A stretch of DNA of 64,000 bases from an uncultured Gammaproteobacteria bacterium (GCA_964404855.1 CAYOLO010000002.1:3494-67493); one strand, 5' to 3'. Positions 1,523 to 35,905 are shown, counted from the stretch's first letter. Notes: a model not told the origin generated them from the sequence alone. Numbers and translations: made by a program.

Positions 1523-2161
1523 TTAGACAGCGCCTTTTTGAGAAAGTAGAGCAGGAACTGTGAGGATTATAATCTTTAAATCATACAAGATTGAGCGCTT
1601 TTTTGCATAATCCGCATCCAATTTGACCCTTTTTTCGAACGAAATATCGCTCCTACCAGAAACTTGCCAAGGACCAGTTAAGCCTGGTTTGGCAGTTAGG
1701 AGTGTTTTGACGTATTTTTTGGTTTCTGGGAAGGCTTTTTGCTGATTAATTAACTCGTCTGGATAATACGCTCTTGGCCCAACAAGACTCATTTCTCCTT
1801 TTAGAACATTAATAAATTGTGGCAACTCATCAATGCTTGTTTTGCGTATAAAATGCCCTAAGGGAGTGACTCTGGGGTCGTGTGATAGTTTGTAGGAATT
1901 TTTCTTGTATTCCTCATAAAGTTTCTTGAATTTTGGGTCACTTTGTAACAAAAGATGAGCATCTTTTATCATTGAACGGAACTTATACATTTTGAACGAC
2001 TTACCGTCTTTACCGCTTCTTTTAGGCACGTCGGCAAACACAGGTCCTGGGCTTGATCTTTTGATCGCGATTGCAATTACAGGAAAAATTAAACACAGAA
2101 TAGACATCCCAACCAGTGAACCGACTATATCGATTGTGCGTTTTGCGAAATCGTAAAACAT
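1523..2161 (-). CDS. Small bacterial sugar transferase (polyprenyl-phosphate hexose-1-phosphate transferase, WbaP/PglC-like initiating enzyme)
   Basis: 212 aa. N-terminal TM helix, then KMYKFRSM...[20 protein letters not shown], the classic PF02397 motifs. Confidence 0.85.
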
Positions 2162-6332: not shown

Positions 6333-7571
6333 TTATTTTTTAGTTAAGTCTCTATATATTCCATCAAGCTTGTTACCTATTACTTCCCACTCATAAACAT
6401 TCTCTACCAACTTACGAGCGTTTTTTGAAACTTTTTCTCGAAGTGGTTTGTTTTTTAGCAGTTTTACTACCATATCGGCTACCTGCTGAGGCGTCTCACC
6501 AACTAAAACACTGCTGTTATTTATTGCTTCAATCCCTTCTATGCCAACAGGAGTAGCTACGACGGGAGTACCGATTGCCATAGACTCTAAGATCTTTAAT
6601 TTTGTCCCTGAACCAATCCTAATTGGAGCAACTGACAGCCATGATTTGGTTAATATTTCTTTTTTGATTTCTTCTTCGACAAATCCGGTTACGGTAATGT
6701 TTTCGGAGTTTAATTTTGCTACATCATTACTTAGCATTCTTTGTATTCCTTTTGGAAGCAATGGTCCAACAATATAAAGATGAGCATCAATTTGACTGGT
6801 AACTAATGGCCAAATATTTTTTACGAAAAAAAACGCCGCATCAGTATTAGCAAAATACCTAAAGTTTCCCAGGAAAACAACCGTTGGTTTTGGATATTTT
6901 TTGGTTTTTGTTGGAACATAATGTTTTGTATCCACTCCGTTAGGAATTAAATCAGTAGCAACATTTATTTTTCTCTTTTTAAGATAGGATGTTAGTAGTA
7001 TTCTGTCTATTTCACTTGCAAATGTGACCTTGTCAAAATATTGGCAAACTTGGACTTCATAATTAAGCATTTTTCTGGCATCTATGTATCCAACCAGTTT
7101 GAGTAATGGATTCTTTTTTTGTTGAGCATTTCTAAAATAAACTTGAGCTTCCACGTCAACTTTGGCGAGTAAAATTGGGATTTTTATCTTATCTCTAACA
7201 GCCAGTAAGCTCTGTGCCATATAAAAAGTTTCAAGATGAATAAGATCTGGTTTTTCTTTTTTAATAACTTCAAGAATTAAATTCTCCGTTTCAGACGAAA
7301 AGTTATTTACTACTGTAAGGAATGAATATTTTGTAAGTAAAGTTCTGACTAGATTTTGTGCCGACCACGCCTTTCTCCTCAGTACTGGATAAATCTTAAA
7401 TCCTTGCTTTTCCAAAATCTTAACATCTTTAAATTCATCAGTGTTTTTTAGAAGACAGATTAAAACTATTTCGTGTTTTTTGCTTAGTTTTTTTAGAAAG
7501 TTGTAAACTCTAACTTTTCCACCCGTAATTGGTGGATAAGGAATATATGGTGATATTAGTAATACTTTCAT
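6333..7571 (-). CDS. Glycosyltransferase family 4
   Basis: MKVLLISPYIPYPPITGGK N-terminus. C-terminal GSGTKLKILESMAIGTPVVATPVGIEG. Confidence 0.8.
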   Translation of the reverse strand: MKVLLISPYIPYPPITGGKVRVYNFLKKLSKKHEIVLICLLKNTDEFKDVKILEKQGFKIYPVLRRKAWSAQNLVRTLLTKYSFLTVVNNFSSETENLILEVIKKEKPDLIHLETFYMAQSLLAVRDKIKIPILLAKVDVEAQVYFRNAQQKKNPLLKLVGYIDARKMLNYEVQVCQYFDKVTFASEIDRILLTSYLKKRKINVATDLIPNGVDTKHYVPTKTKKYPKPTVVFLGNFRYFANTDAAFFFVKNIWPLVTSQIDAHLYIVGPLLPKGIQRMLSNDVAKLNSENITVTGFVEEEIKKEILTKSWLSVAPIRIGSGTKLKILESMAIGTPVVATPVGIEGIEAINNSSVLVGETPQQVADMVVKLLKNKPLREKVSKNARKLVENVYEWEVIGNKLDGIYRDLTKK

Positions 7572-8998
7572 TTATTTAGGGAAATAATTATATATTTATT
7601 TGTACGATATAAAACCTTGTTTTCTTTAGCAAGTTTTTCTATTCCTTCATCAAATTTTAGCGAAACAACGGCTGTGGCGCCTTGGTCTTTAAATACCGAC
7701 ATTTCCTCATAAAATTCTGCCCATCCTGGTCGATTCACATAGTACAGTAGCGATAAATCACCAGCTAGAGGTGCAATAACTTTGTCGTTGGCGTTTAACA
7801 GCTCATCAGCCTTTTTACCTGCCTCTACAATATCATTATTTGTTAAATAGTAACCTTTTACTTCGTAATACCCAAATGCAATTGAAATAATGATAAGAAA
7901 AACCGCAACAGAAACACTAATTGATTTTTCAATAAGGGACTGTCCAGTTTTCAGAAGATGGTCAATACCAAGTGCAACAAATACTGCTAATACTGGCATA
8001 TAAATATATTGATAGTAATCGTGACGAACGTTCGAAGAAGCAAAGATTACGAAATACAAAATCATTGAAAATAACCAAACAAAATAAAAATAATTCTCTT
8101 TATTCTGTCTTCTGGCTACCAGTCCAAAAAACATTAAAACAAAGCCACCTGTACCTAAAATTAATTTAGCAAGTCTTTCAAAAATTAACCATCTAAAAAA
8201 TGCTCCAGTGAATCGGATATCTCCATAATTTAAATACCAATTTGAGCCAATTTGAGCCTCGGGATAATTTGCTCCCCATGCCCGCCATAGGACCAAAGGA
8301 ACAAAAGAAATTAACAAAAAACCGTAATATTTTAAGGAATAGTAAAACAAACCATCTTTTATTAAGGCAAGGTAGATTATTGGAATGAGCCAGAAAACAA
8401 CATAAGGGTAACTGAGGCTTGCTAAGGCAAATAATATACTTGAAAGAAAAAAGGATATTTTAGAATTATTAAAATAATACCTACTAAATAACCATAGTGA
8501 AGCCAAGCCTAAGCAAACCATTGTTGAATTAGGCATTATGACTCTTCCGTAATAAATACTGTATGGCATAAGCGCAAATACTAGGGCGGCTATAATTGCT
8601 ACTCTGGAATTGGAAAACTTTCTGACTAATAAAAACAGGAAAACAGCCGAAAACGAGGCAAATATTGCAGAAACGAGTCTTGCGCTCGACTCATTAATAC
8701 CAAAAATATCCCAAACAAAACCAACAATTAGTGTGTAGATTGGAAACTCCAAGAAGGTTAAACCTTGTGGGTTTGGTTTTTTACTATCAGAAATAGCAAG
8801 AATATTATCGGTTCTAGGACGCAAAATATTAAACCCTTCATCAGCAAAATTCCTAGCCACCATCGCAGTATCTGCTTGTCTAAAGGAGTGCCAGTCTGTA
8901 ATTGAATTATCGATTTTGTAGAGCCTTGGCAGTAAAGTTATAAAAAAAATAACCCCAAGCAATATTAAAGATAGAAATATCTTTTTATATATCTTCAT
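7568..8998 (-). CDS. GT-C fold polytopic membrane glycosyltransferase, ArnT/PMT_2-like
   Basis: ~11 predicted TM helices. First extracytoplasmic loop has WHSFRQADTAMVARNFADEG (the ArnT-family FRQADTA/DE-type motif). C-terminal soluble domain of ~110 aa. Confidence 0.55.
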   Translation of the reverse strand: MKIYKKIFLSLILLGVIFFITLLPRLYKIDNSITDWHSFRQADTAMVARNFADEGFNILRPRTDNILAISDSKKPNPQGLTFLEFPIYTLIVGFVWDIFGINESSARLVSAIFASFSAVFLFLLVRKFSNSRVAIIAALVFALMPYSIYYGRVIMPNSTMVCLGLASLWLFSRYYFNNSKISFFLSSILFALASLSYPYVVFWLIPIIYLALIKDGLFYYSLKYYGFLLISFVPLVLWRAWGANYPEAQIGSNWYLNYGDIRFTGAFFRWLIFERLAKLILGTGGFVLMFFGLVARRQNKENYFYFVWLFSMILYFVIFASSNVRHDYYQYIYMPVLAVFVALGIDHLLKTGQSLIEKSISVSVAVFLIIISIAFGYYEVKGYYLTNNDIVEAGKKADELLNANDKVIAPLAGDLSLLYYVNRPGWAEFYEEMSVFKDQGATAVVSLKFDEGIEKLAKENKVLYRTNKYIIISLNK

Positions 8999-9018: not shown

Positions 9019-10608
9019 TTATTTTTTCTTACTACTAGTTTTTGATGGCATCGCGTCAATAAATTTGGTTGCCGCCATAAGAATTGCAACTAAACCCCAA
9101 AGTGTAAATGCGACTTTTGATGCCTCAAAAATATCAATATATATTGCGTTAGCAAGCAAACCAATAACAGCACAGCTGATTCCAATGACTATCCCTGCAA
9201 TTGTGGGGTCAGTAATTTTTCTAATTGATTTGAAGCTCGCGTATATAACGTAAGCAATTATTCCAAAGAATGAAATAAAACCTGCTAGGCCAGTTTCACC
9301 CAATGATCGTAAATAGTCATTATCGGTCGATTCAGCCTCTGTGAATTCGTATTTTGTAGATTTGGTTAATGTCGAGTATCCTGATCCAAAAATTGGATTT
9401 GCCTTAAAACCGCTAATTGCTTGTGGCCATAACTTATCTAACCTAATTGCTGTAGATAAATCGTATTTAAGGGCGTTATCAGAATATTGTCTTGGTACAG
9501 CAGTCAAGGTTGATTCGCCTGCAGCATTGGTCGCGATGACGTAAATTGGCTGGTCGTTGGTAACATCACTAGGTTTTGTAGAAACAGGTTGTTGATCAGA
9601 CGCAGCTAGAGGACTATCTGGATTGTTTTCCAAAAACGCGGCTTTTTCAGTCGGTTTTTTTGCAAATGGATTTTGGGCTTTTTCAATTAAAGCTGTGAGT
9701 TGATCGTTTTTTATTAATCCGCTAAATCTTGAAGACAAGTCCCCAAACGACAACATAATTACAAGAGAAAACATCATAACAACTGTAAAACTAACGACTG
9801 CCTTGATTTTTTTTCTGTCCCAATAATAAACTCCCGCGACTGCTAAGGAAATTGCGCCCAAATACGCTAGAAACGAAATTCTCGAAGCGGTAAGAATTAA
9901 AATCCAGAAACTAAACACATACAAAACTATTAATCCGAGCTGAATAAGCTTTTTCTTTATCGTTAAAATAAAGCTTAATAGCAGTGTTAATGACATCATT
10001 AAATAGGCAGCCAAATCATAATGACCGCCAAATGTTGACAGCACTCTTGCATGTTCGGTTAAGTAAAGCGCCCAACCTTTCGAAAACTCTCTATTCATTG
10101 TAGAAAAGGCGGGAAAATACATATATTTTTGCGCAAAACCGTACACAGAAATAATCAGTAAAACAATAAAGGCAACGTAAATATATTTTTTAATTTGTTC
10201 TAAAGATTTGATTGACGCAAAAACAATAAAAAACATCGAAAAATACTCCAAACGCCTAAAGTAATGCAAAAACATTTTGCCAATATGATTGGCCTCAGGT
10301 GGAACTGACTGAGTAATAAATATTGCAGACAAACAGGATAACAAGCCGACAACTGCATAAATTATTATTGGCCATGTAAGTGGATTGTTTTTTAAACTAA
10401 CTTTTCCTCGAATTAAATAGATGCCAAAAGTGATAAATGCCAAAAATATCAAAATATCTTCTAAGCGAGCACGAACAATATAACCTGGGAGAATATCGAA
10501 TAAGGGAAATTTTGGATAAACAGGAATAAAAACTATTAGAAAAATAGCTATAAATTCTAAAAGGTGGTTGTCGACAAAATTTAGTATTGCTTTCACTGAT
10601 TTTACCAA
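9019..10608 (-). CDS. Wzy_C-superfamily membrane protein (O-antigen ligase / polymerase / O-oligosaccharyltransferase family)
   Basis: Polytopic. Large loop near the C-terminus has RLDKLWPQAISGFKANPIFGSGYS...DNDYLRSLGETGLAGFISFF, resembling the WaaL/Wzy_C motif R...G.G...HN.YL...E.G..G (with D in place of H). Confidence 0.55.
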   Translation of the reverse strand: MVKSVKAILNFVDNHLLEFIAIFLIVFIPVYPKFPLFDILPGYIVRARLEDILIFLAFITFGIYLIRGKVSLKNNPLTWPIIIYAVVGLLSCLSAIFITQSVPPEANHIGKMFLHYFRRLEYFSMFFIVFASIKSLEQIKKYIYVAFIVLLIISVYGFAQKYMYFPAFSTMNREFSKGWALYLTEHARVLSTFGGHYDLAAYLMMSLTLLLSFILTIKKKLIQLGLIVLYVFSFWILILTASRISFLAYLGAISLAVAGVYYWDRKKIKAVVSFTVVMMFSLVIMLSFGDLSSRFSGLIKNDQLTALIEKAQNPFAKKPTEKAAFLENNPDSPLAASDQQPVSTKPSDVTNDQPIYVIATNAAGESTLTAVPRQYSDNALKYDLSTAIRLDKLWPQAISGFKANPIFGSGYSTLTKSTKYEFTEAESTDNDYLRSLGETGLAGFISFFGIIAYVIYASFKSIRKITDPTIAGIVIGISCAVIGLLANAIYIDIFEASKVAFTLWGLVAILMAATKFIDAMPSKTSSKKK

Positions 10609-13224: not shown

Positions 13225-14305
13225 AAATTGATATTAACTTTTTGGCTGAGTTATTCCAAGAAAAACTTTCCGCTTGTTCTTGAGATTTTAATTTTACGAT
13301 TTTAATTGAGTTTGTTGTTAAAGATAAAAATTTTATAATTTTATGAACCAAGTCATTTTCATCTTTTGGGTCAAAATACATAGCTGCCTGACCACCAGCT
13401 TCTGGCATTGAGGACGTATTAGACGCAATAACTGGCGTACCAAATCTCATTGCTTCAATTATTGGCAGTCCAAACCCTTCATATAAAGAAGGGTAAATAA
13501 ATAAGGCGGAATTTCTATATACAGAAACCAACTCACCGTCTGAAACAAAACCTGTCTGAGTAATATTGTCACTTGTGGGTAAATTGATATTACCCCAACC
13601 TTTTGGTCCGACTATAACTAGTTGATATTTTTTATCAAGATTTATTTTATTGAAAGCGTTAACTAATAAATTAAGATTTTTTCTGGGCTGTAATGTTGAA
13701 ACACTTAAAAAATAAGGTTTAGTTATTTTAAATTTTTTTGAGACATCGTTAAAACTGCTGGATTTTTTATTTTGTATTTTAGTACTTGGGTAAACAATCT
13801 CTGTTTTATTAATATCGAATTCAAAATATCTAAAGAAGTCGTCTCGGCACGACTTTGATAAGAATGTAATAAAAGATGCATACTTTACTGCTCTCTCCAT
13901 ACGCGTTTGGTGCACTCTTACAGTCTTTACCGTATGATCTTCTGGCATAATTTTTGTTGTTAAGTCGTAAATAGGCACAATAATCTTTGCTTTTTTTGAT
14001 CTTGGGGTTAGCCAATCAGAACAAACAAAAACATTAATGCCGGAACAAAAATAATCTATAGGAACATTAAACTTGTGAAAAATTAACTCAAATACTGAAA
14101 CAGGAAAGGGGTATATTTTTGTTTTAGCTTGGGGATAATTTGAACAGAATTTCTTTAGTTTAAAATACCCTCTTAAACTTGTTCCAAATAATACGTATGT
14201 GTTTTTTTTATCTAGACTAATTACTGACTCGACCAAGTCAGCCGTTAAGTTCGAAACACCTGTACCATAAATAATTTGTGAAACATCGATAGCTATTTTT
14301 TTCAT
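13211..14305 (-). CDS. Glycosyltransferase family 4
   Basis: [32 protein letters not shown] motif. Confidence 0.8.
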
Positions 14306-15738
14306 TTTTTAATAAAAATCTTTACGCTGCCTATTTTATTGAAACTATAACCAGTTATTTCAGAATAATATGTTTTCAAAAAATTTTCTGTAATTAAGCT
14401 TGGATCAGTCAAATCTGAAAGATAGCTGTAATAAATAATATGATCATATTTTAGTAAAATTTGCTGTTTTTCAGTTGGAATTTTATTCATTATGAACTCA
14501 TCCCCTGCCCCAACGGCCTTACTCGTATTATAGTAATAATAAATATCGTACGGCACCTTAGTTGAAAAAACTGTCATTGCATTGGGGTATTTGGAACTTA
14601 AAAAATCGGAATATACTTTTGCCCCTTTCCAATCTTCTCTCCAAAATATCGGGTTAGCAAAATAAAGAAAAATAAAAATAAAATTGGAAACAAGAATAAA
14701 ATAAAACCCATTTTTAATAATTTGAGGATTGATTTTGAGACTTATTATAATCAAATAAATAAATGGAATTAAAAATAGCAATCTAAAGTACGAATATATT
14801 GGTAGAAAAGCTGCAATTGTCGTAACAAGCATAAAAGTGCTTAAAAAAATTATTAAAACAGGATTAAATTGCCTTTTTACCAAAAAATATACTATTGCCA
14901 ATAAATAGACAGCAGTATTTAGTAGCGCAACTATTGATATATACACTGAATAATTAAAATCAACTAAGCCAGTAGAAGTTTTTATAAAAAATTGAAAAAA
15001 GTTTTTTAAAAAGTTATTACTGCCAATTACATTTTGCCAGCCACTAAATGATGAAGAGATATTGCTTCCAGAAACTAGTTGAGTCTTAAAGATTGGAAAC
15101 ATTAAACTTGAAATAATTACAGAGATAATTGAAATCGAAAATATATAAGTAAGATTCTTTTTTTTATTCTTCCATAAAATATATCCCATATATATCGATG
15201 AGCTAAAAACATACAAATAAGCAATGTAGTTTAGATAGATGATTAAAATATTTGTAATAAAAAATAAGGTGCAGTATTTTTTTGAAAACTTTTTTCTCAC
15301 TAGTAATAAAAAATATAGATTTAAAATCACGATTAATCCCGTAAGAGAATATGGTCTTGCTTCAAATGAATAAGTAATTAAGATCGGTGAAGTCGCAACA
15401 AGTATTGAAGGCCAAAGCTGAAAATTTTTATTTTTAATAACTTCTTTAGAAATTAAATATGTAACTAAAACTGTTAATACACCAGCAATAAGTGCGGGCA
15501 AACGAAAAACATATTCATCTGACCCTAAAAGGAAATAAAAAAGTTTTTGAATTATGAAATATAATGGCGGATGAAAATCGCCCAATAAAAAGACATTAAA
15601 ATATTCCTTAATGCTAAAATTAATCGCAGTCTGAGCAGCAATTCCTTCATCTAACCAAAAACTCTGATTCCAACTAAGAACTCTAAGAATAAGAGCAAAT
15701 ACGAGAACAATAATTATTGGTTTGTTTATTTTTTTCAT
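14302..15738 (-). CDS. GT-C fold membrane glycosyltransferase, ArnT/PMT_2 (GT39/GT83-like)
   Basis: SFWLDEGIAAQTA...DFHPPLYF...FRLPALIAG are the canonical DE, HPPL and R-L-P motifs. Start chosen at the internal MKKINKP, making a 4-bp ATGA overlap with the upstream gene. The ORF-track start at 15843 is probably too long. Confidence 0.7.
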   Translation of the reverse strand: MKKINKPIIIVLVFALILRVLSWNQSFWLDEGIAAQTAINFSIKEYFNVFLLGDFHPPLYFIIQKLFYFLLGSDEYVFRLPALIAGVLTVLVTYLISKEVIKNKNFQLWPSILVATSPILITYSFEARPYSLTGLIVILNLYFLLLVRKKFSKKYCTLFFITNILIIYLNYIAYLYVFSSSIYMGYILWKNKKKNLTYIFSISIISVIISSLMFPIFKTQLVSGSNISSSFSGWQNVIGSNNFLKNFFQFFIKTSTGLVDFNYSVYISIVALLNTAVYLLAIVYFLVKRQFNPVLIIFLSTFMLVTTIAAFLPIYSYFRLLFLIPFIYLIIISLKINPQIIKNGFYFILVSNFIFIFLYFANPIFWREDWKGAKVYSDFLSSKYPNAMTVFSTKVPYDIYYYYNTSKAVGAGDEFIMNKIPTEKQQILLKYDHIIYYSYLSDLTDPSLITENFLKTYYSEITGYSFNKIGSVKIFIKK

Positions 15739-16865
15739 GATACAAAGGTTCCTGAGACAAACAGTGATAGAAAAAATATTTGAAGCAATATAAACAAAAC
15801 AAGGAGCGGGTAAATAAATATTGGCTTTAGGTAGGCAATACAAATAAATACTGGGAATGCTGTAAGCGCGTACCTCGGCATCGAACTAAATGTTCCCGTT
15901 AGCGGCGGCACCAATACTACCAGTAGTGTATATACGATTAATGGTTTTGGAAGTTTTTTTATAAACAGCATTGGAATAGCTAAGAAGCTAAGTGTAATAA
16001 AAATTTCCGTTAGAGCCAAAACAAATGCGTTCGATGTAAGTGAAACCGTAATTAGTATTTTGAAATAACGAAAAATAACTTGTGGCAGTAGTACAAAATC
16101 ACTGCTTCTTGAGTTACCAAAATAATTTTGGGCATGAATAAAATATAAAAAGTCACCGTATTTAATCTGTAGAAATATCATGTAGCTGACAAGACCAAGT
16201 GGAATTAAAAAAACAGGTAAAATTGTTTTCTTTTGTTTATAAAAATAGGTAATCATTAGTGCGGGTAATATAAAAATGCCTGCAAGGCGAGTTGCTGTTG
16301 CAAAAACACCAAAACCAACAGATAGAAATATTCGGTTAATAAAAAAATAGTAAAAAGATGCTGTTGTCAGCATTAAAAATAACCCTTCGTTATATACAGA
16401 ATTAAAAAAGAAAGAAAATGGATAACAAAGTATTAAAAGAATCACAATTTTGTATTCGATTTGGATAAAATATTTTTTTACAATTTTTTGTATGTAAATT
16501 AATGAAACAAGTAAACAGATATTGTTTATCGCAATACCTATGAATAATTTGGGGGTCACACCAAAAGACAAAATATTAATTAACAATGGATAAAATGGAA
16601 AAAATGCTTGTGTATATTGATTTGCATAGCCATCCGAAGCAATATTTAGATAATGAACACCATCAAATCCACCCCAAACATAAGATGATAATAATCCGTA
16701 TTCCCTTACAAGATTTTCAAAATATGGATAGGTTGGATTAAACTCTAAAATCTTTGCGAGATAAACGCCTAATACTGTTAATACTAGCTTCCATAATATA
16801 AATACAAAAAATACAAATCTATATTCTTTGTATTTTTTTTTAATGAACGATTTGTTGATAAACAT
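15735..16865 (-). CDS. Polytopic membrane glycosyltransferase, GT87/DUF2029 or PIG-V-like mannosyltransferase family
   Basis: GGFDGVHYLNIASDGYANQYTQAFFPFYPLL matches the D..HY..IA..GY...AFFPLYP motif of PIG-V/DUF2029-type mannosyltransferases. ~10 TM helices. Confidence 0.45.
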   Translation of the reverse strand: MFINKSFIKKKYKEYRFVFFVFILWKLVLTVLGVYLAKILEFNPTYPYFENLVREYGLLSSYVWGGFDGVHYLNIASDGYANQYTQAFFPFYPLLINILSFGVTPKLFIGIAINNICLLVSLIYIQKIVKKYFIQIEYKIVILLILCYPFSFFFNSVYNEGLFLMLTTASFYYFFINRIFLSVGFGVFATATRLAGIFILPALMITYFYKQKKTILPVFLIPLGLVSYMIFLQIKYGDFLYFIHAQNYFGNSRSSDFVLLPQVIFRYFKILITVSLTSNAFVLALTEIFITLSFLAIPMLFIKKLPKPLIVYTLLVVLVPPLTGTFSSMPRYALTAFPVFICIAYLKPIFIYPLLVLFILLQIFFLSLFVSGTFVS

Positions 16866-17859
16866 CAGAAGTTAATTTTGCCGTTTTTTCCCATGTAAAT
16901 TTTTGATTATTTTTAATTGAATCGTTTGATAACTGATCATATTCCGATTTATTAAGTGTAGTTATTTGATTTATGGTATCAATAATACTTTTTTTCGAAT
17001 ATGGATCGAAATATCTTGCAGCAGTACCACCTACTTCAGGCAGACAAGATATGTTCGATGTGGCAACTGGTGTACCACACGCCATTGATTCAAGAATTGG
17101 AAAACCAAACCCTTCATCCCAAGAAGGAACAACTGTTAGGTGTGCTAAATTGTAAATATCTACAAGGTCGTTTGCTGACTCGATTTCGCCAATAATTTGA
17201 GAATTTTTTGAATTTGCAACCATTTTTTTAATCTTAATTACTTCTGCTGAATGACCACTAAATGGCCTACCGGCTAAAAACAGTCTGATTTTAAAACTCT
17301 CAGCGGCTTGAATTAGGCGGATAACGTTTTTGTTGGGATTAATATCGCCTAGGTAAAGTACAAATTTATCAGGAAGTTTATATTTTTTTTGGGTTTGAAT
17401 TAATTCTTTTTTTTGTTTTTTTACAAAAATTGGATCAGCCGCTAGTGGAATAGAATATATTTTTTGAGGATTAATACCTGTAAGGACTGAAATACGCTTT
17501 TTTGAATGCAAACTGTCTGTAATTATTGCATCGGCTTTTTTTAATTTTTGTTTTTGAATTTGCCATTTAATTGCACCTTTTATTCCTTTTGGGAAAATTT
17601 TTGGATAATCAATGGGAATTAGATCATGGACAGTAATAACGGTGGGGCGAGTAAACCTACTAGGCAACGTTAAAAAAAATGGATCAAAATATGGATAATG
17701 CACCACATCTGGTTCGTCGCTGTAACTATCAACTAATCTGACAAGACTTTCCGACTTAAGCGAATTAACTAGGTTATTAATATAAGTTCCAGATCCTCTG
17801 GCTTTATGCCCAGTAATCAAGCGGGTCTGGTCGATCAATACTTTGGTTTTTTGACTCAT
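16840..17859 (-). CDS. Glycosyltransferase family 4
   Basis: WDEGFGFPILESMACGTPVATSNISCLPEVGG motif. Confidence 0.8.
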   Translation of the reverse strand: MSQKTKVLIDQTRLITGHKARGSGTYINNLVNSLKSESLVRLVDSYSDEPDVVHYPYFDPFFLTLPSRFTRPTVITVHDLIPIDYPKIFPKGIKGAIKWQIQKQKLKKADAIITDSLHSKKRISVLTGINPQKIYSIPLAADPIFVKKQKKELIQTQKKYKLPDKFVLYLGDINPNKNVIRLIQAAESFKIRLFLAGRPFSGHSAEVIKIKKMVANSKNSQIIGEIESANDLVDIYNLAHLTVVPSWDEGFGFPILESMACGTPVATSNISCLPEVGGTAARYFDPYSKKSIIDTINQITTLNKSEYDQLSNDSIKNNQKFTWEKTAKLTSDVYQQIVH

Positions 17860-18622
17860 AATATTTTAAGTACGTAGAAATATAATGGAATCCAGAATAA
17901 AGCGAAAACGCAAAACCTGCCATACCATCCCGAAATCCTTGATGACGAAAATATAGTAAAAAAAATGTTTTTATAGGATAAAAAAATAAATACTTAACAG
18001 AAAAACCAAAGGTTATTTTTGTCTCAGCTGCCTTAAGATATCTGGCGTCCATACTACTGTATCTATTTGAACGAATTAGATATCTAGTAAAACTTACATC
18101 TCCATAATGCAGCATGTCGTTTTTTACCCAACCTATTTCTCCATCAATTTCAATCTGTTCGTGTGTGGCTTTGGCTGGAACCCTGCCTTTCCCTTTTTTA
18201 AACAATCTAATGACTGGGTCCGGATAGTTTGCAGTTTTTTTCATCCAGTGAGCTAAAAAATAATTTTTTCTGGGAATGTAATATCCTGCATACTTACTGC
18301 CATTTAAAATAATTTTTGAAATTTCTTCTTTTAAGTCTGATGTTAACTCTTCGTCAGCATCTAACTGAAAAATCCAATCTCCTTGACAGATGTCGATTGC
18401 TTTTTGCTTATTAACATGAAAGTGTGGTGGATTATCCACAACAAAAACTTTGGCTCCTAATTTTTTGGCTAATTTAACTGTGTTATCGGAGGATGATCCG
18501 TCAAAAATTACAATTTCATCTGCCCAACCCTTTACAGAATTAAGCGAGTGTTCAATATTTTTTTCTTCGTTGTACGTTGCCATCGCAATCGACAACTTAA
18601 TAGCTTTATTTTTTACAGTCAT
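17804..18622 (-). CDS. Glycosyltransferase family 2 (WaaE/KdtX-like subfamily)
   Basis: LSIAMATYNEEKNI...FDGSSSDNT...QLDADEE. Paralog of 26097..26906. Confidence 0.8.
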   Translation of the reverse strand: MTVKNKAIKLSIAMATYNEEKNIEHSLNSVKGWADEIVIFDGSSSDNTVKLAKKLGAKVFVVDNPPHFHVNKQKAIDICQGDWIFQLDADEELTSDLKEEISKIILNGSKYAGYYIPRKNYFLAHWMKKTANYPDPVIRLFKKGKGRVPAKATHEQIEIDGEIGWVKNDMLHYGDVSFTRYLIRSNRYSSMDARYLKAAETKITFGFSVKYLFFYPIKTFFLLYFRHQGFRDGMAGFAFSLYSGFHYISTYLKYYESKNQSIDRPDPLDYWA

Positions 18623-20246
18623 TGGAATTAATCATAACAAACTTCGGTCGATTGAAGCTATCAAAAATGACCTCACGATTATTGATTCCCCTGAACTCGC
18701 TAGGTGTGCCAATCAACAAATCTGCACTATTCGAATCCGCACATGACAATGTGGGCTTAAATGAAATATTTGAAAATCCATGTACACTCCACAGACCAGA
18801 TGGTTCTGAATTAGCCTTTCGAGTTTTGATGTAATCTTCAGGACTATACTGCCAGTAATATAAAAGATTAGCGTAAGCTCGACCATATTCGTCAGTTACT
18901 AAAATCTTTGGATATTTATCTTTAACTTTTTTTAAACTTTCAGACATTTGCCTGTAACCATCCTGCCAGCTATCTGCAAATTTTTTAGGATAAAAATAAA
19001 TATAATCTGAGTAAAATATTAAAAATTGAAATAATAAAAGAAACAGAAAGGTGGTTAATAAAATTTTTTTTAGCTTGGCCTTTTTTACCTGCTCAAATAG
19101 ATATATCATTCCATACGAGCTAGTAAGAATTAATGCTGGTAACATGTGAAGTGTTCTTAGGGCGTGGGGAGTTTCTCTGGCTACGCTTGCAGCAATCGGA
19201 GAAAGTAAAATCCAAAACAAAATAAAATAAAAAAACTTCCTTTTGTTTTTGAATAGATATATTAATCCTATAAAAATAAGTATTATTTCAATCAAATATA
19301 GTTGCCCCATTTTTTGTGAAGAGAAGCGGGGATTTACATCTCCTGTTAAAAATAAATATTGATGTGAAAAGTGGTCCAAATAGTGATCAAAATAATTTTG
19401 TGCATGAAATACTCGGCGGTTATAAATTATTTTTGAAATTAATGAATTGTTATTTCGAAGTTGTAACGAATTTGATTTGCTGACTGGCTCAGGATCAGAA
19501 AAAATATTAACTTCATTAAACCTTAATTGTCCGGAGTTTGTTAATCCAAATGAGATTAATGGAATAATTAATATTATTCCTAATATCATTGACACGATTA
19601 GATATTTTGCGTAATTTATTGAGATTTTTTTGTTAAATAATTGCCATAATCCAAGAAAAAATATCCAAATTGGGAGAAAATACCGGGTACCATTGAATGC
19701 ATACATTGACCCGACAAAAAATATTACTGATAAAAATATTAACCTTGACTTAATTGTTGATTTAACAAAAAATAATGTACCAGCAGTAGCTAAAGTTGTC
19801 GCAAGGTTAGCTTCAAATGCTGCTCTGGATAATTGTATGCTCCAAGGTGAAATACAAATAAAGAGTGCGGCAAGGAGCGGATATTTTTTGTTTTTTGGAG
19901 TAATCTCTTTGGCTAAAAGATAAATTAATAATATTAATATAGTCCCTGAAATTATTGACGTTAATCTAACTGTTAGATAGTTCAGGCCAAATAATTTAAC
20001 AAGTGGAGCAGTTAGATAGATATATAGCGGTGCTTTATAGTCGCCGTATGCTGTGAATGCTTGAACTGGCAACAAGTTGCCATGTTCGTCTTTTAGTGTT
20101 TCAGCAATTGAATAACTATTGTAACCAATTGATACTTCATCCCAATATAGGGATGGAGGGGAATTAAAAATATTAAAGATTCTTAAAAAAAATCCAAAAA
20201 ATAATATTAAAATTAGGTATTTATTATTACTTATTAATTTTTTCAT
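18606..20246 (-). CDS. GT-C fold membrane glycosyltransferase, ArnT/PMT_2-like (tandem paralog A)
   Basis: LYWDEVSIGYNSYSIAETLKDEHGNLLP...YKAPLYIYL...VRLTSIISG. ~12 TM helices plus a C-terminal soluble domain. Confidence 0.7.
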   Translation of the reverse strand: MKKLISNNKYLILILFFGFFLRIFNIFNSPPSLYWDEVSIGYNSYSIAETLKDEHGNLLPVQAFTAYGDYKAPLYIYLTAPLVKLFGLNYLTVRLTSIISGTILILLIYLLAKEITPKNKKYPLLAALFICISPWSIQLSRAAFEANLATTLATAGTLFFVKSTIKSRLIFLSVIFFVGSMYAFNGTRYFLPIWIFFLGLWQLFNKKISINYAKYLIVSMILGIILIIPLISFGLTNSGQLRFNEVNIFSDPEPVSKSNSLQLRNNNSLISKIIYNRRVFHAQNYFDHYLDHFSHQYLFLTGDVNPRFSSQKMGQLYLIEIILIFIGLIYLFKNKRKFFYFILFWILLSPIAASVARETPHALRTLHMLPALILTSSYGMIYLFEQVKKAKLKKILLTTFLFLLLFQFLIFYSDYIYFYPKKFADSWQDGYRQMSESLKKVKDKYPKILVTDEYGRAYANLLYYWQYSPEDYIKTRKANSEPSGLWSVHGFSNISFKPTLSCADSNSADLLIGTPSEFRGINNREVIFDSFNRPKFVMINSNDCKK

Positions 20247-21924
20247 ATTGAGCTGAGTCTGTTATATCGATAGCTGTATCCTTATTAGGGGATAATATTT
20301 GTTTTATCGGCTCCGCTAAAAATTCGTCTTTTTCTCCAATTAATAATATTTTCTTATCTTTTGTAATGGTTTTGGGGTTAATGTTTATAAAACGATATTT
20401 TCCCAAAGCATTTCCTTCAAAACCTTCATACCCTGCTTTTGTTCCACCTTGGCTTAGATATATTTCTGGGTTCACTTTCAAATATAGTAGCCAATAAATG
20501 TAAGATTGTTCTAATTTATTTGATATCCATATTTCATCGTACTGATTCTCAACCTCATTACTATATTCTACTGCCTCTTTCCTTCCAAACTGCCAGTCCT
20601 GTGATGTTTCAAATTTGTAGTGACTAATGTATTGATGATAATAAAAATAAAAGTTAACCAAAGTAAAAATAATTAATAATCCAAATATTACTCTTTGTAG
20701 TTGATTTTTTTTCTTACTCAGCCAACTAATTCCCAAACCTCCTAGTATTGATAAAGGTATCATTAAAACTGATGCCCTGATCGAATGTGGAGCCTCAAAT
20801 GTCAGTGCTGACGCCATTGGTGAAATAAGTAGAAGTGACAATACAAGAACTTTTTCCTTGTTAAATTTTTTCTTTTTTACTAATACCCATGTGCCTAAAA
20901 TAATAAATGCCGATTGCGACAACAAAACTAAACCAACTCTTGTTGCGTGATGTCTTGGATTATCTTGTGTATAAATTAAAAATTCTGGTGAAAAATGCGA
21001 TAAGTAGTTAGAAAATAAGAGATCTAGCTGGTAAAAACTCCTATTGTGAAATAGTTTTGATGGCAAATTGTTGCCATTTTCAATGTCAAATAATTTTCTG
21101 GCTGGATCAATCTGGTCGATATTTTTTTTAGAAAAAATACTCGTGTCTTCAAAACGGTTTTGTGCTCCTGAAAAAAATATCGAATATGTGAGAGGAGCTA
21201 TTAGGATTAAGCTTAATAAAACGGAAAAAATAATTTGTTTTCTTGCTAAGCTAAAAATTTGTTTCCAGTAAAGAATTACTAGAATTGCAACAATAAGTGG
21301 AATAATTAATTTTGCAGAATGGTACGCATACATCCCAATAGCAAAGAAAACAATCGATATATTAATATTGTTATGTTTTCCATTAACAAATTTATAGAAA
21401 AAATATAATCCAAAGATAATAAAAAATACTAAAATATTTCCCTCAAAAGCCACTCTAGAAAAATGAATGGACCACGGAAGAAGTGCCAAAAATAAAGATG
21501 TATATATTGCAATCTTTCTTTTTTTAAACAATTGAAAAGTTAACAAATATATTCCCAAAACACTAAATAAGCCCAAAATCAAACTAGGCAATCTCACTAC
21601 ATTACCAACCGGTCCAAATATTGCTACGAATGGTACTGTCAAATAAATATATAACGGCGATTTGTAATCATCAAACGATCTAAACACCAGTGGAAGTGTT
21701 TCTCCGTACTCATCCTTGCCTGTTTCCAGTAGAGACCATGCATTGTAAGTAATTGATACTTCGTCCCAATTTAACGAAGTTGCTGACTTTTCAAAAGCGT
21801 AAGTCCGTACAAAAACAGCAATAAATAAAACACTTAAGATTAAGATATGTTTTTTACATTTACCCAGCATTTCCAAAATTATTGATGATTTCTTTGTCCG
21901 ATAGTTTGTAGTATTTTGTTTCAT
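20227..21924 (-). CDS. GT-C fold membrane glycosyltransferase, ArnT/PMT_2-like (tandem paralog B)
   Basis: LNWDEVSITYNAWSLLETGKDEYGETLP...YKSPLYIYL...VRLPSLILG is clearly paralogous to 18606..20246. The true start is possibly the internal MLGKCKK (~21870). Confidence 0.7.
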   Translation of the reverse strand: MKQNTTNYRTKKSSIILEMLGKCKKHILILSVLFIAVFVRTYAFEKSATSLNWDEVSITYNAWSLLETGKDEYGETLPLVFRSFDDYKSPLYIYLTVPFVAIFGPVGNVVRLPSLILGLFSVLGIYLLTFQLFKKRKIAIYTSLFLALLPWSIHFSRVAFEGNILVFFIIFGLYFFYKFVNGKHNNINISIVFFAIGMYAYHSAKLIIPLIVAILVILYWKQIFSLARKQIIFSVLLSLILIAPLTYSIFFSGAQNRFEDTSIFSKKNIDQIDPARKLFDIENGNNLPSKLFHNRSFYQLDLLFSNYLSHFSPEFLIYTQDNPRHHATRVGLVLLSQSAFIILGTWVLVKKKKFNKEKVLVLSLLLISPMASALTFEAPHSIRASVLMIPLSILGGLGISWLSKKKNQLQRVIFGLLIIFTLVNFYFYYHQYISHYKFETSQDWQFGRKEAVEYSNEVENQYDEIWISNKLEQSYIYWLLYLKVNPEIYLSQGGTKAGYEGFEGNALGKYRFININPKTITKDKKILLIGEKDEFLAEPIKQILSPNKDTAIDITDSAQYEKINK

Positions 21925-22783
21925 TATTTCGACTTGTGATAATTTTAGGATACTTTAATAAAAACCACATAATTGAACTTAACATGTTTGTGTCCATTTT
22001 AATGAGTGATTTAATTGTTAACTGAATCAAAGTAATATAAAAACTTAACAATATTTTTTTATCAGTAATATTTTTAGCAGAAAAAATTAACATATTTCTA
22101 GCGGCTATTTTTGTAATTCTGTCGGCGGAATGGTGTTTTCTAATTGAACCAATTTCGTGAAAATGATCAACCACAATCTCAGGTGCAAATAAAATTTCCC
22201 ATCCAGACTTAATTGCCCGGTAAGATAAGTCAATGTCCTCCCAATAAAATGGATTATATATTTCATTAAATCCACCAAGCTTTTTAAATTTTTCTAAACT
22301 AACTGCGCAACTACCTCCTGAAATCCAAAGCGTCCTACCAAATTCATTCTTTCCTTTTGCGTGATTAAGTAGACCTTTTTTAAAGATACCGACTCCTCTA
22401 CCCCTTAACACAATGTTTTTGTCTTCAAAACTTCGATCCTGAAAACCAATACCAAAAAGATTCTCGTTTTCAAAATAACTTTCAATTTGCCTTGTGTAAT
22501 CTTTGTTTACAGCTACATCTGTGTTAAGCAAAACAACGATTGGAGTTTTTGCTTTTTTTACCCCACTATTAACATTTGATGAAAAGCCTTTATTTATTTT
22601 ATTTGTTATTATTTCAACATTTGGAAAATTATTAGCCAAAAAACTTAAACTATCATCGCTTGAGTTATCGTCAGATATTATTATTTGTGAATCTGGAAAA
22701 TTTTTGATTATGTTTGGAAGATTACGTCTAAGCAATTTCGAACCGTTGTAGTTAGGTATAACGACTGTAATTTTTTTACTCAT
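21860..22783 (-). CDS. Glycosyltransferase family 2
   Basis: ITVVIPNYNGSKLL...IIISDDNSSDDS...LNTD. Confidence 0.8.
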   Translation of the reverse strand: MSKKITVVIPNYNGSKLLRRNLPNIIKNFPDSQIIISDDNSSDDSLSFLANNFPNVEIITNKINKGFSSNVNSGVKKAKTPIVVLLNTDVAVNKDYTRQIESYFENENLFGIGFQDRSFEDKNIVLRGRGVGIFKKGLLNHAKGKNEFGRTLWISGGSCAVSLEKFKKLGGFNEIYNPFYWEDIDLSYRAIKSGWEILFAPEIVVDHFHEIGSIRKHHSADRITKIAARNMLIFSAKNITDKKILLSFYITLIQLTIKSLIKMDTNMLSSIMWFLLKYPKIITSRNNETKYYKLSDKEIINNFGNAG

Positions 22784-35176: not shown

Positions 35177-35905
35177 TTATGCTTTTATCCAGTGATGTTT
35201 GAGCCAGATCTTTGCAAGACTGGTGAGTGTCATAATGGCATTTTTAGCTGTAACATGCATTCTTGTTTCACCGCCATAATTCCATTCGACAGGAACTTCA
35301 GCAACTTTATATTTCAACTTTCTAGCCATATATAAGATTTCTACATCGAAAATGATATTTTCTATTATTTGTCTTGAAAAAAGATCCTTAGCAGAATCAT
35401 GACTAAACATTTTAAATCCAGTTTGTGAATCTTTAATCCCTCTAACTAAAAATTCGCGAATGAAAGTAAACATTTTACCTAATACTCTTCTGTATAGAGG
35501 TTGTGATGCTCGCAAGTCTTTTCCTGTTGACTGTATCCTTGAACCGATTGCGATATCGGCTCCGTTGTTAATAGCTAGAATAAGTTTGTCTGCTTCTGTA
35601 ATTGGTGTTGCCATATCTGCGTCGGCAAAAATAATATATTTACCTTTTGCCTCAAGCATCCCTTTTTTGACTGGATATCCCTTAAAGTAGTTCTTTGGTG
35701 ATTTTAGAATTTTTAAATTACTTTGACTTTTGATTAAATCTTCAACAATCTGGACAGTGTTATCTTTGGAAAAATCATCAGAAACAATGATTTCGCCAGA
35801 TATTTTTTTTGAATCAAAGTATTCTTGAACTGATTTTATTGAAGAAGCTATTCTTTCCGACTCGTTATAAGTAGGGATTACGACTGATAAATATATTTCT
35901 AACAT
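35177..35905 (-). CDS. Polyprenol-phosphate sugar synthase, GT2 Dpm1/CsbB/GtrB-like
   Basis: LSVVIPTYNESERI...IIVSDDFSKDNT...FADADMATP...DSQTGFKMFS, the Dpm1-type motifs. 242 aa soluble form. Confidence 0.75.
   Translation of the reverse strand: MLEIYLSVVIPTYNESERIASSIKSVQEYFDSKKISGEIIVSDDFSKDNTVQIVEDLIKSQSNLKILKSPKNYFKGYPVKKGMLEAKGKYIIFADADMATPITEADKLILAINNGADIAIGSRIQSTGKDLRASQPLYRRVLGKMFTFIREFLVRGIKDSQTGFKMFSHDSAKDLFSRQIIENIIFDVEILYMARKLKYKVAEVPVEWNYGGETRMHVTAKNAIMTLTSLAKIWLKHHWIKA

Follow-up and report, generated by a model that had tools for sequence, protein, structure and literature searches.

Six minus-strand open reading frames (A to F) of the window, by which we mean the whole 64,000-nucleotide stretch of DNA analysed here, are read by us, with moderate confidence, as catalytically intact PMT_2-type GT-C glycosyltransferases that add lipid-linked sugars onto the glycan of their own operon on the outer side of the membrane. 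The reading rests on the fold, on conserved motifs, on the orientation of the loop, on the homology of the donor synthases, and on the operon structure and its synteny. The reading frames were recovered where the original prediction had placed them, and the strings quoted there were found in the sequence:

7568-8998, minus strand: A, PMT_2 GT-C glycosyltransferase, 476 aa (Pfam, AF2 model, Foldseek, family conservation)
14302-15738, minus strand: B, PMT_2 GT-C, 478 aa (Pfam, hhalign, orthologs)
18606-20246, minus strand: C, PMT_2 GT-C, 546 aa, old tandem paralog of D (Pfam)
20227-21870, minus strand: D, PMT_2 GT-C, 547 aa from the ortholog-supported start (Pfam, AF2 model, Foldseek)
32573-34090, minus strand: E, PMT_2 GT-C, 505 aa (Pfam, family alignment, hhalign)
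35931-37448, minus strand: F, PMT_2 GT-C, 505 aa (Pfam, alignment, natural fusions, synteny)

All six proteins matched the Pfam family PMT_2 (PF13231; gathering threshold 26.1 bits), with scores of 54.3 (A), 34.6 (B), 34.9 (C), 43.7 (D), 60.2 (E) and 48.9 bits (F). They share a layout of a short K/R-rich N-terminus, a first transmembrane helix (TM1) and a motif loop of 36-63 aa, and each ends in a non-hydrophobic tail of 99-138 aa, in agreement with the C-terminal soluble domain originally proposed. The six look intact and are unremarkable additions to a known class of enzyme.

Sequence searches of the PDB were uninformative, single-sequence phmmer with A, D and E giving no matches and the A family profile only noise, and comparison at the level of the fold was therefore needed. 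The profile of the C/D family matched PDB sequences only at ArnT 5ezm (E 0.0028, over the TM2-TM6 region). AF2 models of A (pLDDT 90.8, pTM 0.91) and D (pLDDT 88.4, pTM 0.89) were confident. By Foldseek, the A model matched ArnT best (5f15, E 4.9e-9, TMq 0.65), within a set comprising ArnT, STT3, PglB, AglB, ALG9/12, DPY19, AftA and Pmt4 (E 5e-9 to 8e-5), while the D model matched AglB, STT3, ArnT, PglB and Pmt4 along with the others of this set; weaker matches of the two models include Emb, Aft and PimE. The GT-C core is thus present in A and D, and the fold assignment holds. The other four are tied to the fold of D by homology: C is 33% identical to D, and hhalign related B and the A, E and F families to the C/D family with probabilities of 98.7-99.5%. 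A and D also have a C-terminal alpha/beta domain, at about residues 386-476 in A and 427-547 in D.

In GT-C enzymes an acidic motif of DxD, DD or DE type shortly after TM1 is essential (PMC6801728). A crude hydropathy-based helix picker missed helices, so that loop parity and whole-protein positive-inside counts were unreliable, and it was replaced by a test of the charges flanking TM1 across the families. Net charge was higher on the N-terminal than on the C-terminal flank in 146 of 150 family sequences (N-in). Natural fusions of a GT2 domain to F (P0345 and P0355) point the same way, P0355 having a single hydrophobic segment between its cytoplasmic-type GT2 domain and FLGDEGRD. Judged by charge bias and fusions, the motif loop would lie outside the cell, and the proposal of ArnT/PMT-like GT-C enzymes whose first loop beyond the membrane holds an acidic motif is borne out by the sequences together with the models of A and D. 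Neither refuting condition named in the original prediction arose: the two models do not lack the GT-C core, and the loop is not predicted to be cytoplasmic.

The nature of this motif had been given as Asp-Glu in all six, an assignment that stands for B, C/D, E and F and falls for A. Every aligned sequence of the C/D family (38/38), the E family (40/40) and the F family (35/35) has the pair. C carries WDE, KDEHG and DYKAPLY, and the invariant residues of D are D36-E37, D53-E54, D68 and K70. Those of the E family are P40, F42, D44, E45, Y48 and W51, together with D68-G-K70-x-P72, and E aligned with C/D over 411 columns (hhalign 99.5%). In F, F-L-G-D51-E52-G-R-D55 is fully invariant, as is a Cys pair of the C-terminal domain (C460/C465); the hhalign alignment of F loop 1 to the C/D motif is ambiguous. 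B contains W-L-D30-E31, paired with the D-E of the C/D profile (hhalign 98.8%), and has GDFHPPLY where C and D have DYKPPLY, with His in place of Lys. Orthologs of B (93%, 77% and 49% identity) retain both motifs, D-E included. B belongs to a narrow, lineage-specific family: scans for its relatives gave no more than 2 loci among species genomes and no match among metagenome contigs, and a third ortholog (locus L005) was reached via the contig of a D homolog, so that deep conservation of the B motif rests on three orthologs. These orthologs support the B start at 15738, not a longer TTG-initiated reading frame to 15843.

The pair flagged in A, D53-E54 within FADEG, is not conserved. Position 53 is Lys in 29 of 40 homologs and Asp in 3 of 40; position 54 is acidic in 33 of 40. 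Invariant in loop 1 of the A family are instead D35, H37, R40, Q41, D43, T44 and R49, which define the motif D35-W-H37-x-x-R40-Q41-x-D43-T44, and in the hhalign alignment with the C/D family (99.1%) it is D43-T44, not D53-E54, that stands opposite the invariant D-E. D35 and D43 are both candidates for the catalytic Asp of A. From its sequence conservation, the flagged D-E of A is a non-conserved coincidence, and the chance occurrence of such a pair within a loop of ~55 residues, by a rough estimate about one in ten, is not unlikely. The invariant motif had itself been quoted in the original prediction and was misattributed. As a variant of the GT-C loop-1 motif, DWHxxRQxDT is a target for learning how far the canonical D-E can vary.

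C and D had also been taken for a clear recent duplication, a dating contradicted by the data. The two proteins are 32.7% identical over 513 aa, and comparison of their DNA revealed no in-register repeat. Both genes are present at three related loci (L001, L002 and L005). A related genome has them in tandem, with 52% identity to the window for the D ortholog, 60% for the C ortholog and cross-identities of ~31%. As judged from these comparisons, C/D is an ancient, stably retained tandem duplication. Orthologs of D begin at M19 of the reading frame first proposed, and D therefore spans 20227-21870 rather than ending at 21924.

All six genes belong to a co-oriented, operon-like array, of which the following parts are relevant here:

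1523-41423, minus strand: whole 34-gene operon-like array (Pfam, gaps, synteny)
1523-2161, minus strand: phosphoglycosyl transferase, PGT (Pfam)
9019-10608, minus strand: Wzy_C protein (Pfam)
27775-29247, minus strand: Wzx (Pfam)

The largest intergenic gap in the array is 25 nt, and 22 junctions overlap. Some 40 kb encode about 24 glycosyltransferases, roughly ten of them GT-C and 13 of them Leloir enzymes (7 GT4 and 6 GT2), together with ManC, an acetyltransferase, Gmd, an RmlD-like reductase and RmlA. Gene order is conserved at five related loci (L001-L005): one block runs GT2-GtrA, F, GT2, Y, E, P2, P1, Wzx (50-82% identity) and another YfhO, GT2, D, C, GT2, GT4, X, B (49-60% identity); the additional genes are described below. 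Scans for promoter and terminator consensus at the operon ends performed no better than on shuffled sequence. From its gene content and organisation, the array is probably an operon for a cell-surface sugar coat. The operon context, the additional GT-Cs and the two donor synthases had been overlooked in the original prediction.

A count of six GT-C enzymes is too low, as further GT-C clan proteins and candidate donor synthases are encoded in the same array, listed here together with the polytopic protein X:

15735-16865, minus strand: X, polytopic protein of 376 aa beside B, no family match above threshold
22776-25079, minus strand: YfhO-family GT-C of 767 aa, previously unflagged (Pfam YfhO, 91.4 bits)
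29222-30940, minus strand: P1, match to Pfam PTPS_related
30937-32571, minus strand: P2, paralog of P1
34069-35169, minus strand: Y, polytopic protein of 366 aa, candidate MptA/MptB-type (ortholog annotation)
35177-35905, minus strand: small GT2 of 242 aa, DPMS/GtrB/ArnC type (5mlz match)
37463-38614, minus strand: GT2 + GtrA/DPMS-TM fusion protein (Pfam Glycos_transf_2, GtrA_DPMS_TM)

P1 and P2 form a second adjacent paralog pair (27% identity), each with a soluble domain of 120-140 aa followed by a C-terminal TM anchor. PTPS_related belongs to the GT-C Pfam clan (PMC7801869), and an ortholog of P2 matches YfhO weakly. Y is probably a GT-C mannosyltransferase of MptA/MptB type, as suggested by a 50%-identical ortholog at L003 with a precomputed match to Pfam PF26314 (MptA_B_family), which our local Pfam copy does not reproduce; in that copy X, Y and P2 had no match even at E <= 10. 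X has a sub-threshold NCBIfam match to the AZOBR_p60025 glycopolymer-formation family (E 1.7e-7) and is conserved next to B, being syntenic at L001, L002 and L005. Comparison of X and Y by hhalign with PMT_2-family profiles revealed no relation. On these sequence assignments the operon would encode about ten GT-Cs in total.

The fusion protein at 37463-38614 aligns over its full length, TM domain included, with the Pyrococcus furiosus Dol-P-Man synthase (PDB 5mlz; E 2e-46), its residues 1-379 pairing with 23-373, and is probably a polyprenyl-phosphate-hexose synthase, mannose being the probable hexose, that supplies donor. The small GT2 at 35177-35905, a second candidate polyprenyl-phosphate-sugar synthase, matches the catalytic domain of 5mlz (E 1.5e-18), then GtrB sll0501 and ArnC; no other protein of the window resembles the GT2 portion of the natural GT2-GT-C fusions as closely (32% identity, E 8.5e-23). 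These two DPMS-like genes flank F, a linkage and gene order kept at 67% identity; neither protein reached NCBIfam equivalog cutoffs. Candidate translocation elements are the GtrA_DPMS_TM domain that forms part of the synthase and a single Wzx (27775-29247), and no stand-alone GtrA flippase is encoded in the operon. By analogy with archaeal DPMS, the GtrA-like domain may serve only as the membrane anchor of the synthase.

From these parts we infer the identity of donor and acceptor and the order of action as follows. At the cytoplasmic face, the PGT and the 13 Leloir GT4/GT2 enzymes would build a polyprenyl-PP-linked oligosaccharide from nucleotide sugars made by ManC, Gmd, the RmlD-like enzyme and RmlA; Wzx would flip it, and the Wzy_C protein would polymerise or ligate it. 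In parallel, the two DPMS-like enzymes would charge polyprenyl phosphate with hexose, most likely mannose and/or glucose. After translocation of the lipid-linked sugar, single sugars would be moved onto the glycan at the outer face by A to F, the YfhO-family protein, P1/P2 and probably Y, using the invariant acidic motif just after TM1 in catalysis, with the alpha/beta C-terminal domain helping to bind the acceptor. Such a role has a precedent in a three-component system where the C-terminal domain of the GT-C serves as carbohydrate-binding module (PMC11127046). The six enzymes represent five anciently diverged subfamilies and therefore probably differ in linkage or acceptor site. Co-location in the operon is in itself no proof that the GT-Cs act on the operon's own glycan. 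The inventory is lopsided, with about ten GT-Cs and only two recognisable donor synthases.

In monoderm bacteria, wall polymers are modified by a GT-A C55-P-sugar synthase, a GtrA or Wzx flippase and a GT-C, the PMT_2 protein GtlB among them, and YfhO counts as a member of such three-component glycosylation systems (PMC8035078). Counterparts to all three component types of GtlA/GtcA/GtlB and CsbB/GtcA/YfhO (Listeria, Bacillus, Staphylococcus) and of GacI/J/K/L (S. pyogenes) occur in the window: a GT-A/GT2 polyprenyl-phosphate-sugar synthase, a candidate for translocation (GtrA- or Wzx-type) and polytopic GT-Cs whose acidic motif is predicted to be extracytoplasmic. Whereas those systems combine one synthase with one GT-C for one side-chain sugar, the window has about ten GT-Cs and two synthases in a 34-gene Wzx/Wzy-type operon.

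The families originally named (ArnT, PMT, GT39, GT83) describe a resemblance rather than a membership. That the six are true ArnT-type enzymes, transferring an aminoarabinose-like sugar onto lipid A or an analogue and conferring resistance to cationic peptides, is extremely improbable. ArnT (GT83, PDB 5EZM/5F15) shares with them the polytopic GT-C core and the C-terminal soluble alpha/beta domain, is the best structural match of A, a match of D and the sole PDB sequence match of the C/D profile; a K-P-P block after loop 1 aligns, and some homologs are annotated 'ArnT family' in their sources. Sequence identity to ArnT, however, is 10-13%, and none of the six matched the NCBIfam ArnT equivalog at E <= 0.1. 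The defining first-loop motifs RYA and YFEKP (PMC5377068) are absent from all six, a loose D/E-x-K-P analogue occurring only in C, D and E. The operon contains no ArnA, ArnB or ArnD genes. On equivalog match, defining motifs and arn pathway genes, ArnT membership is effectively refuted. To our knowledge, CPR/Microgenomates bacteria are generally described as having no LPS outer membrane. We consider it unlikely that some or all of the six are protein O-glycosyltransferases placing single hexoses on Ser/Thr of secreted, S-layer or pilin proteins with a polyprenyl-phosphate-sugar donor, like actinobacterial Pmt or the streptococcal Pgf/GtrB-dependent GT-Cs. PMT_2 is a PMT-related Pfam model of the same clan as PMT/Pmt (GT39), which share the loop-1 D-E motif and draw on polyprenyl- or dolichyl-phosphate-mannose from a DPMS/Ppm1-type GT2, of which the DPMS-like synthase is an analogue; Pmt4 and Pmt1/2 are among the fold matches. 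D marginally reaches Pfam PMT (PF02366), scoring 23.7 bits where 22.7 are required, with a match that covers profile positions 80-228, and PF02366 matches occur among many A and D homologs as well. Pilins are encoded in a type IV pilus locus at a distance of 12-20 kb, and protein glycosylation that depends on GT-C enzymes has been described in monoderm bacteria (PMC12041528). Yet the other five fall short of the PMT model, no PMT_4TMC or MIR domain was found in the six at E <= 0.01, and no candidate Ser/Thr-rich acceptor is encoded within the operon, where genes for PGT, Wzx, Wzy_C and 13 Leloir enzymes are mixed in among the six, a context that fits a lipid-linked oligo- or polysaccharide pathway.

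Quite unlikely in our estimate is a series of about ten GT-Cs building most of the glycan outside the membrane, in the manner of the mycobacterial Mpt/Emb/Aft or the ER-lumenal ALG3/9/12/6/8/10 enzymes, with C/D and P1/P2 as possible heterodimers (compare Pmt1-Pmt2 and EmbA-EmbB). GT-C genes are unusually many for a single operon, the Y ortholog is annotated MptA_B_family, both paralog pairs are kept in tandem with overlapping reading frames at 50-60% ortholog identity, and the A model also matches ALG9, ALG12 and AftA. As here, many GT-C paralogs (MptA/B, PimE, EmbA/B/C and AftA-D, fed by Ppm1 and DPA synthases) occur in mycobacteria and corynebacteria, where they cooperate on one envelope glycan using polyprenyl-phosphate-sugars; those enzymes, however, are of GT53/85/87/89 rather than PMT_2 type, the mycobacterial genes are dispersed rather than gathered in one operon, and the array of the window has no arabinofuranose pathway. 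Moreover, 13 Leloir enzymes with Wzx and Wzy_C would already be enough for a conventional repeat-unit pathway, and only two donor synthases are present. A fuller version, an ER-lumen-like or mycobacterium-like line of about ten GT-Cs from at least 7 ancient families, with C/D and P1/P2 as heterodimers and a mechanistically distinct A family, is likewise doubtful; the A family, with D-W-H-x-x-R-Q-x-D-T in place of D-E and widespread in Microgenomates, would then differ in donor or in catalytic arrangement. Such a line could yield the surface glycan by which these episymbionts meet their hosts. Our preferred reading remains that of GT-Cs adding single lipid-linked sugars to a glycan assembled by the Wzx/Wzy-type pathway.

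The host is a tiny-genome (~1 Mb) CPR bacterium, Curtissbacteria-like. CPR/Patescibacteria account for much of the diversity of bacteria and live attached to other microbes, and their surface chemistry is almost without experiments. In the literature we found nothing specific on CPR together with GT-C, ArnT or GT39, and no experimental data on CPR glycosylation systems; one paper calls glycosylation in CPR 'unexplored', pilin glycosylation there being only predicted. With the motif of A corrected, the C/D pair dated and donor synthases added, the array offers a set of defined parts with which to reconstitute the system in a heterologous host and to predict surface sugars. Devoting 40 kb of a ~1-Mb genome to one glycan operon amounts to a heavy investment in extracytoplasmic glycan.

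All long open reading frames (ORFs) of the window lie on the minus strand. The six ORFs flagged in the original prediction as ArnT/PMT-like enzymes were present, the motif strings quoted for them were found in the sequences, and only the start of one ORF had to be corrected:

7568-8998 (-): A, PMT_2 protein
14302-15738 (-): B, PMT_2 protein
18606-20246 (-): C, PMT_2 protein
20227-21924 (-) as flagged, 20227-21870 (547 aa) from the ortholog-supported start: D, PMT_2 protein
32573-34090 (-): E, PMT_2 protein
35931-37448 (-): F, PMT_2 protein

All six matched Pfam family PMT_2 (PF13231) above the gathering score (34.6-60.2 bits; cutoff 26.1), and D marginally reached PF02366 (PMT) as well. Orthologs place the start of D at M19 of its ORF and agree with the ATG start initially proposed for B, a longer TTG ORF being without support. 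The best protein matches are annotated as Candidatus Curtissbacteria, Levybacteria, Beckwithbacteria or Patescibacteria, which assigns the source to the Microgenomates within the CPR, and homologs are already designated 'glycosyltransferase family 39' or 'ArnT family' by their sources. C and D excepted, pairwise identity among the six reaches at most ~31% over at most ~150 aa, and the ORFs represent five anciently separated PMT_2 subfamilies. Hundreds to thousands of homologs per subfamily were found in Patescibacteria (CPR), except for the B family, which appears to be narrow.

The acidic motif of GT-C enzymes, polytopic glycosyltransferases using lipid-linked sugars, has been defined as a DxD-, DD- or DE-type motif soon after the first transmembrane helix (TM1), within the first loop on the luminal or extracytoplasmic side; it is essential in several families (PMC6801728). 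Its conservation was evaluated by column counts in alignments of the A (40 sequences), C/D (38 sequences), F (35 sequences) and E families (40 representatives at 50% clustering). In the C/D family, W-D36-E37 and a second motif, K/R-D53-E54-Y-G, were each found in 38/38 sequences, and D68-Y-K70-P-P-L-Y was essentially invariant. F42-x-D44-E45-x-x-Y48 and D68-G-K70-x-P72 were each present in all 40 E representatives, and the entire block F48-L-G-D51-E52-G-R-D55 in 35/35 F sequences. The D-E of B, kept together with 'GDFHPP[LI]Y' in orthologs at 93%, 77% and 49% identity, was aligned by hhalign with that of C/D (98.8% probability). Comparing F with C/D, hhalign gapped out the first C/D motif and paired 'GRD' with 'GKD'; D51-E52 of F matches this first motif by its spacing from the conserved Arg that closes TM1 and is probably equivalent to it.

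The first-loop Asp-Glu motif attributed to all six proteins thus holds for B to F, but not for A. The stretch quoted for A (FRQADTAMVARNFADEG) was the right one, but the wrong residues had been credited: position 53 (flagged as D53) is Lys in 29/40 sequences, the 3/40 with Asp being close relatives, and position 54 (flagged as E54) is acidic in 33/40. The invariant residues of this loop are D35, H37, R40, Q41, D43, T44 and R49. Profile-profile alignment of A with C/D (99.1%, E = 8.6e-19, 374 columns) placed D43-T44 opposite the C/D D-E and 'ADEG' opposite the second C/D motif 'KDEYG', while an ungapped reading places H37-S38 opposite D-E with D35 just upstream. D35 and D43 are candidates for the catalytic Asp, and this motif variant is one of three less ordinary features of the finding.

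Charge bias across TM1 was measured over all family alignments (n = 150 sequences). Net charge ranged from +2.7 to +4.0 in the N-terminal flank and from +0.4 to -2.3 in the C-terminal flank, with the former exceeding the latter in 146/150 sequences, which argues for a cytoplasmic N-terminus and for loop 1, with its motif, lying outside the cytoplasm as predicted. In two F homologs from Microgenomates, a CPR subgroup, an F-type GT-C naturally carries a GT2 domain fused at its N-terminus (P0345, 708 aa; P0355, 733 aa). This GT2 domain is DPMS-like and has to draw on nucleotide sugars of the cytoplasm; in P0355, one strongly hydrophobic segment stands between it and FLGDEGRD. The fusions provide Rosetta-stone evidence for functional coupling as well as a built-in topology marker. 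The general GT-C topology (PMC6801728) agrees with both tests.

Sequence searches of the PDB returned nothing with single sequences or with the 40-member A family profile; the C/D family profile weakly matched ArnT 5EZM (E = 0.0028), with 'YKPPLY' opposite ArnT 'KPPFHMW'. Confident AlphaFold2 models of A (pLDDT 90.8, pTM 0.91) and D (pLDDT 88.4, pTM 0.89) were built from the family alignments and compared with the PDB using Foldseek. The closest structure to A was ArnT 5F15 (E = 4.9e-9, TMq 0.65); next came STT3, PglB, AglB, ALG12, ALG9, DPY19, AftA and Pmt4, and D matched AglB, STT3, ArnT, PglB, Pmt4, DPY19 and Emb. Since these are GT-C enzymes and transporters appeared only at a probability of ≤0.2, both models contain the anticipated GT-C core. 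A small alpha/beta domain follows the last transmembrane helix in the models (~386-476 in A, ~427-547 in D), and non-hydrophobic tails of 99-138 aa terminate all six proteins, bearing out the proposed soluble C-terminal domain. This domain carries an invariant Cys pair in the F family. In a recently described system the C-terminal domain of the GT-C is a carbohydrate-binding module (PMC11127046).

The tandem pair C/D had been interpreted as a clear recent duplication, which our data contradict. The two proteins are paralogs (E = 9e-69, 32.7% identity over 513 aa) and their genes overlap by 20 nt; no in-register DNA repeat was found between them, the DNA matches being short AT-rich chance hits only. 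Both copies occur in the same tandem layout in assembly GCA_964445355.1 (L005), where the orthologs of D and C are 52% and 60% identical and cross-identities are ~31%. The duplication is therefore older than the split from L005 and has been stably kept since.

The six genes belong to a larger array, missed in the original prediction, of 34 co-oriented genes (1523-41423 (-)) with a largest intergenic gap of 25 nt and 22 overlapping junctions, which we presume to be transcribed as one operon. It further encodes:

in operon (-): Bac_transf phosphoglycosyl transferase and ManC-like nucleotidyltransferase (Pfam)
in operon (-): seven GT4 and six Leloir-type GT2 enzymes
in operon (-): hexapeptide acetyltransferase
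in operon (-): Gmd, RmlD-like reductase and RmlA
9019-10608 (-): Wzy_C protein
15735-16865 (-): X, unassigned polytopic protein
22776-25079 (-): YfhO-family GT-C
27775-29247 (-): Wzx flippase
29222-30940 (-): P1, PTPS_related protein of the GT-C clan
30937-32571 (-): P2, neighbour of P1 and 27% identical to it
34069-35169 (-): Y, unassigned polytopic protein
35177-35905 (-): second DPMS-like GT2 (5MLZ catalytic-domain match)
37463-38614 (-): fusion of GT2 and GtrA/DPMS transmembrane domain (5MLZ match)

Gene order is conserved in other loci. The order RmlA, RmlD-like, Gmd, GT2-GtrA, F, GT2, Y, E, P2, P1, Wzx recurs in two of them (L003 and L004; orthologs 50-82% identical), the order YfhO, GT2, D, C, GT2, GT4, X, B, GT4 in L005 (orthologs 49-60% identical), and the middle of the operon in CAYQLK010000001.1 and CAYROP010000001.1 at 77-100% identity. 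P1 and P2, whose 27% identity extends over ~550 aa and whose genes overlap by 4 nt, are kept as a pair in L003 and L004; unlike the six PMT_2 proteins, both carry a soluble domain of 120-140 aa followed by a C-terminal transmembrane anchor. The Y ortholog in L003 (10278-11378, 50% identical) has a precomputed match to Pfam PF26314 (MptA_B_family), while our local Pfam scan of Y and this ortholog gave no match at E ≤ 10, perhaps because different Pfam versions were used. By direct evidence nine proteins of the operon belong to the GT-C clan; there is probably a tenth, and possibly an eleventh if X is one. With about ten GT-Cs and ~24 glycosyltransferases in a single compact operon, this very small genome shows an unusual density of such genes. 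GC content is 28-32% over the central operon (14000-38000) and 35-39% in the flanks and at both operon ends, possibly owing to the codon composition of membrane proteins, or because the core of the cluster is variable or was acquired.

F is flanked by both DPMS-like GT2 genes. The product of 37463-38614 aligns along its entire length with Pyrococcus dolichyl-phosphate mannose synthase 5MLZ (E = 2e-46), with GtrB and ArnC as the next hits. That of 35177-35905 matches the 5MLZ catalytic domain (E = 1.5e-18) and, of all proteins in the window, best matches the GT2 portion of the natural fusions (32% identity, E = 8.5e-23). Two further GT2 proteins (17804-18622 (-) and 26097-26906 (-)) are paralogs with 30% identity, and one of their genes shares 17 nt with the end of C. 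Both proteins have a conserved hydrophobic or amphipathic extension at the C-terminus and weakly resemble GT2 enzymes of the SunS and arsenosugar types; they could make lipid-linked donors as synthases of a third type. A BacA/UppP undecaprenyl-diphosphate phosphatase (50354-51184 (-)) and an adjacent DedA/VTT-domain protein (51199-51864 (-)) are encoded ~9 kb upstream of the operon. The two families have been connected with polyprenyl-phosphate carrier recycling, DedA as Und-P flippase, and some ten GT-Cs releasing lipid phosphate outside the membrane would depend heavily on such recycling.

Multi-component systems are described for wall polymers of Gram-positive bacteria and O antigens of Gram-negative ones: C55-P-sugar is made by a GT-A enzyme and translocated by a protein of the GtrA or Wzx type, after which a GT-C passes the sugar to the polymer outside the membrane; the PMT_2 protein GtlB of Listeria and YfhO are members of such three-component systems (PMC8035078). 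The operon resembles these systems in its architecture, and we therefore propose that its cytoplasmic half would build and then flip a polyprenyl-PP-linked repeat unit, that the two DPMS-like synthases would supply polyprenyl-phosphate-hexose, plausibly mannose because ManC is encoded in the operon, and that the GT-Cs would add sugars on the outside of the membrane, with every subfamily serving its own position. The analysis establishes the fold, the invariant motifs, the synthase homology, the genetic linkage, the synteny and, from sequence, the loop orientation; the donor sugar, the acceptor, the order of action and co-transcription of the array are inferred. This class of mechanism is well known, and a specialist would not be surprised that a glycan cluster of CPR bacteria contains PMT_2 GT-Cs; we found no experimental work on CPR glycosylation in the literature. 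A true ArnT function is effectively excluded, as the six proteins lack the RYA and YFEKP motifs and an ArnT equivalog match, and the operon lacks arn pathway genes.

A Pmt-like O-glycosylation of pilins, S-layer or secreted proteins would fit the type IV pilus locus nearby and the GT-C-dependent protein glycosylation described for streptococci (PMC12041528), but the hallmarks of PMT are missing and the context of the operon is polysaccharide-like; we consider a protein acceptor unlikely. The proposed glycan assembly could be more elaborate, proceeding serially outside the cytoplasm in a mycobacterium-like or ALG-like manner with C/D and P1/P2 as putative heterodimers. This is attractive in view of the number of GT-C genes and of how long both pairs have been kept together, though we consider it quite improbable. 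It seems doubtful that such a serial assembly line and heterodimeric pairs hold jointly with a mechanism peculiar to the A subfamily.

The pilus block (53524-61118 (-)) encodes a PilB-type ATPase (59394-61118), PilC/T2SSF (58318-59397), two N-methyl pilin-like proteins (57837-58310 and 53524-54036) and a beta-propeller protein (56006-57925); under O-glycosylation, the pilins would be possible acceptors. Directly upstream of the operon lies a gene for a CAP/SCP-domain protein (41708-42643 (-)) with a C-terminal transmembrane segment and a Thr/Ser/Pro-rich linker, the kind of region targeted by streptococcal O-glycosylating GT-Cs, and farther on one for a lamin-tail-domain protein (44598-45815 (-)); both occupy the same positions in L003. 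The public records CAYQLK010000001.1 and CAYROP010000001.1 are titled 'uncultured Gammaproteobacteria bacterium', while the named close homologs of the window's orthologous proteins are annotated as Candidatus Curtissbacteria; these MAGs have probably been mislabelled taxonomically. A single 372-aa ORF (49202-50320 (-)) encodes a class-I peptide chain release factor with PCRF and RF-1 domains.
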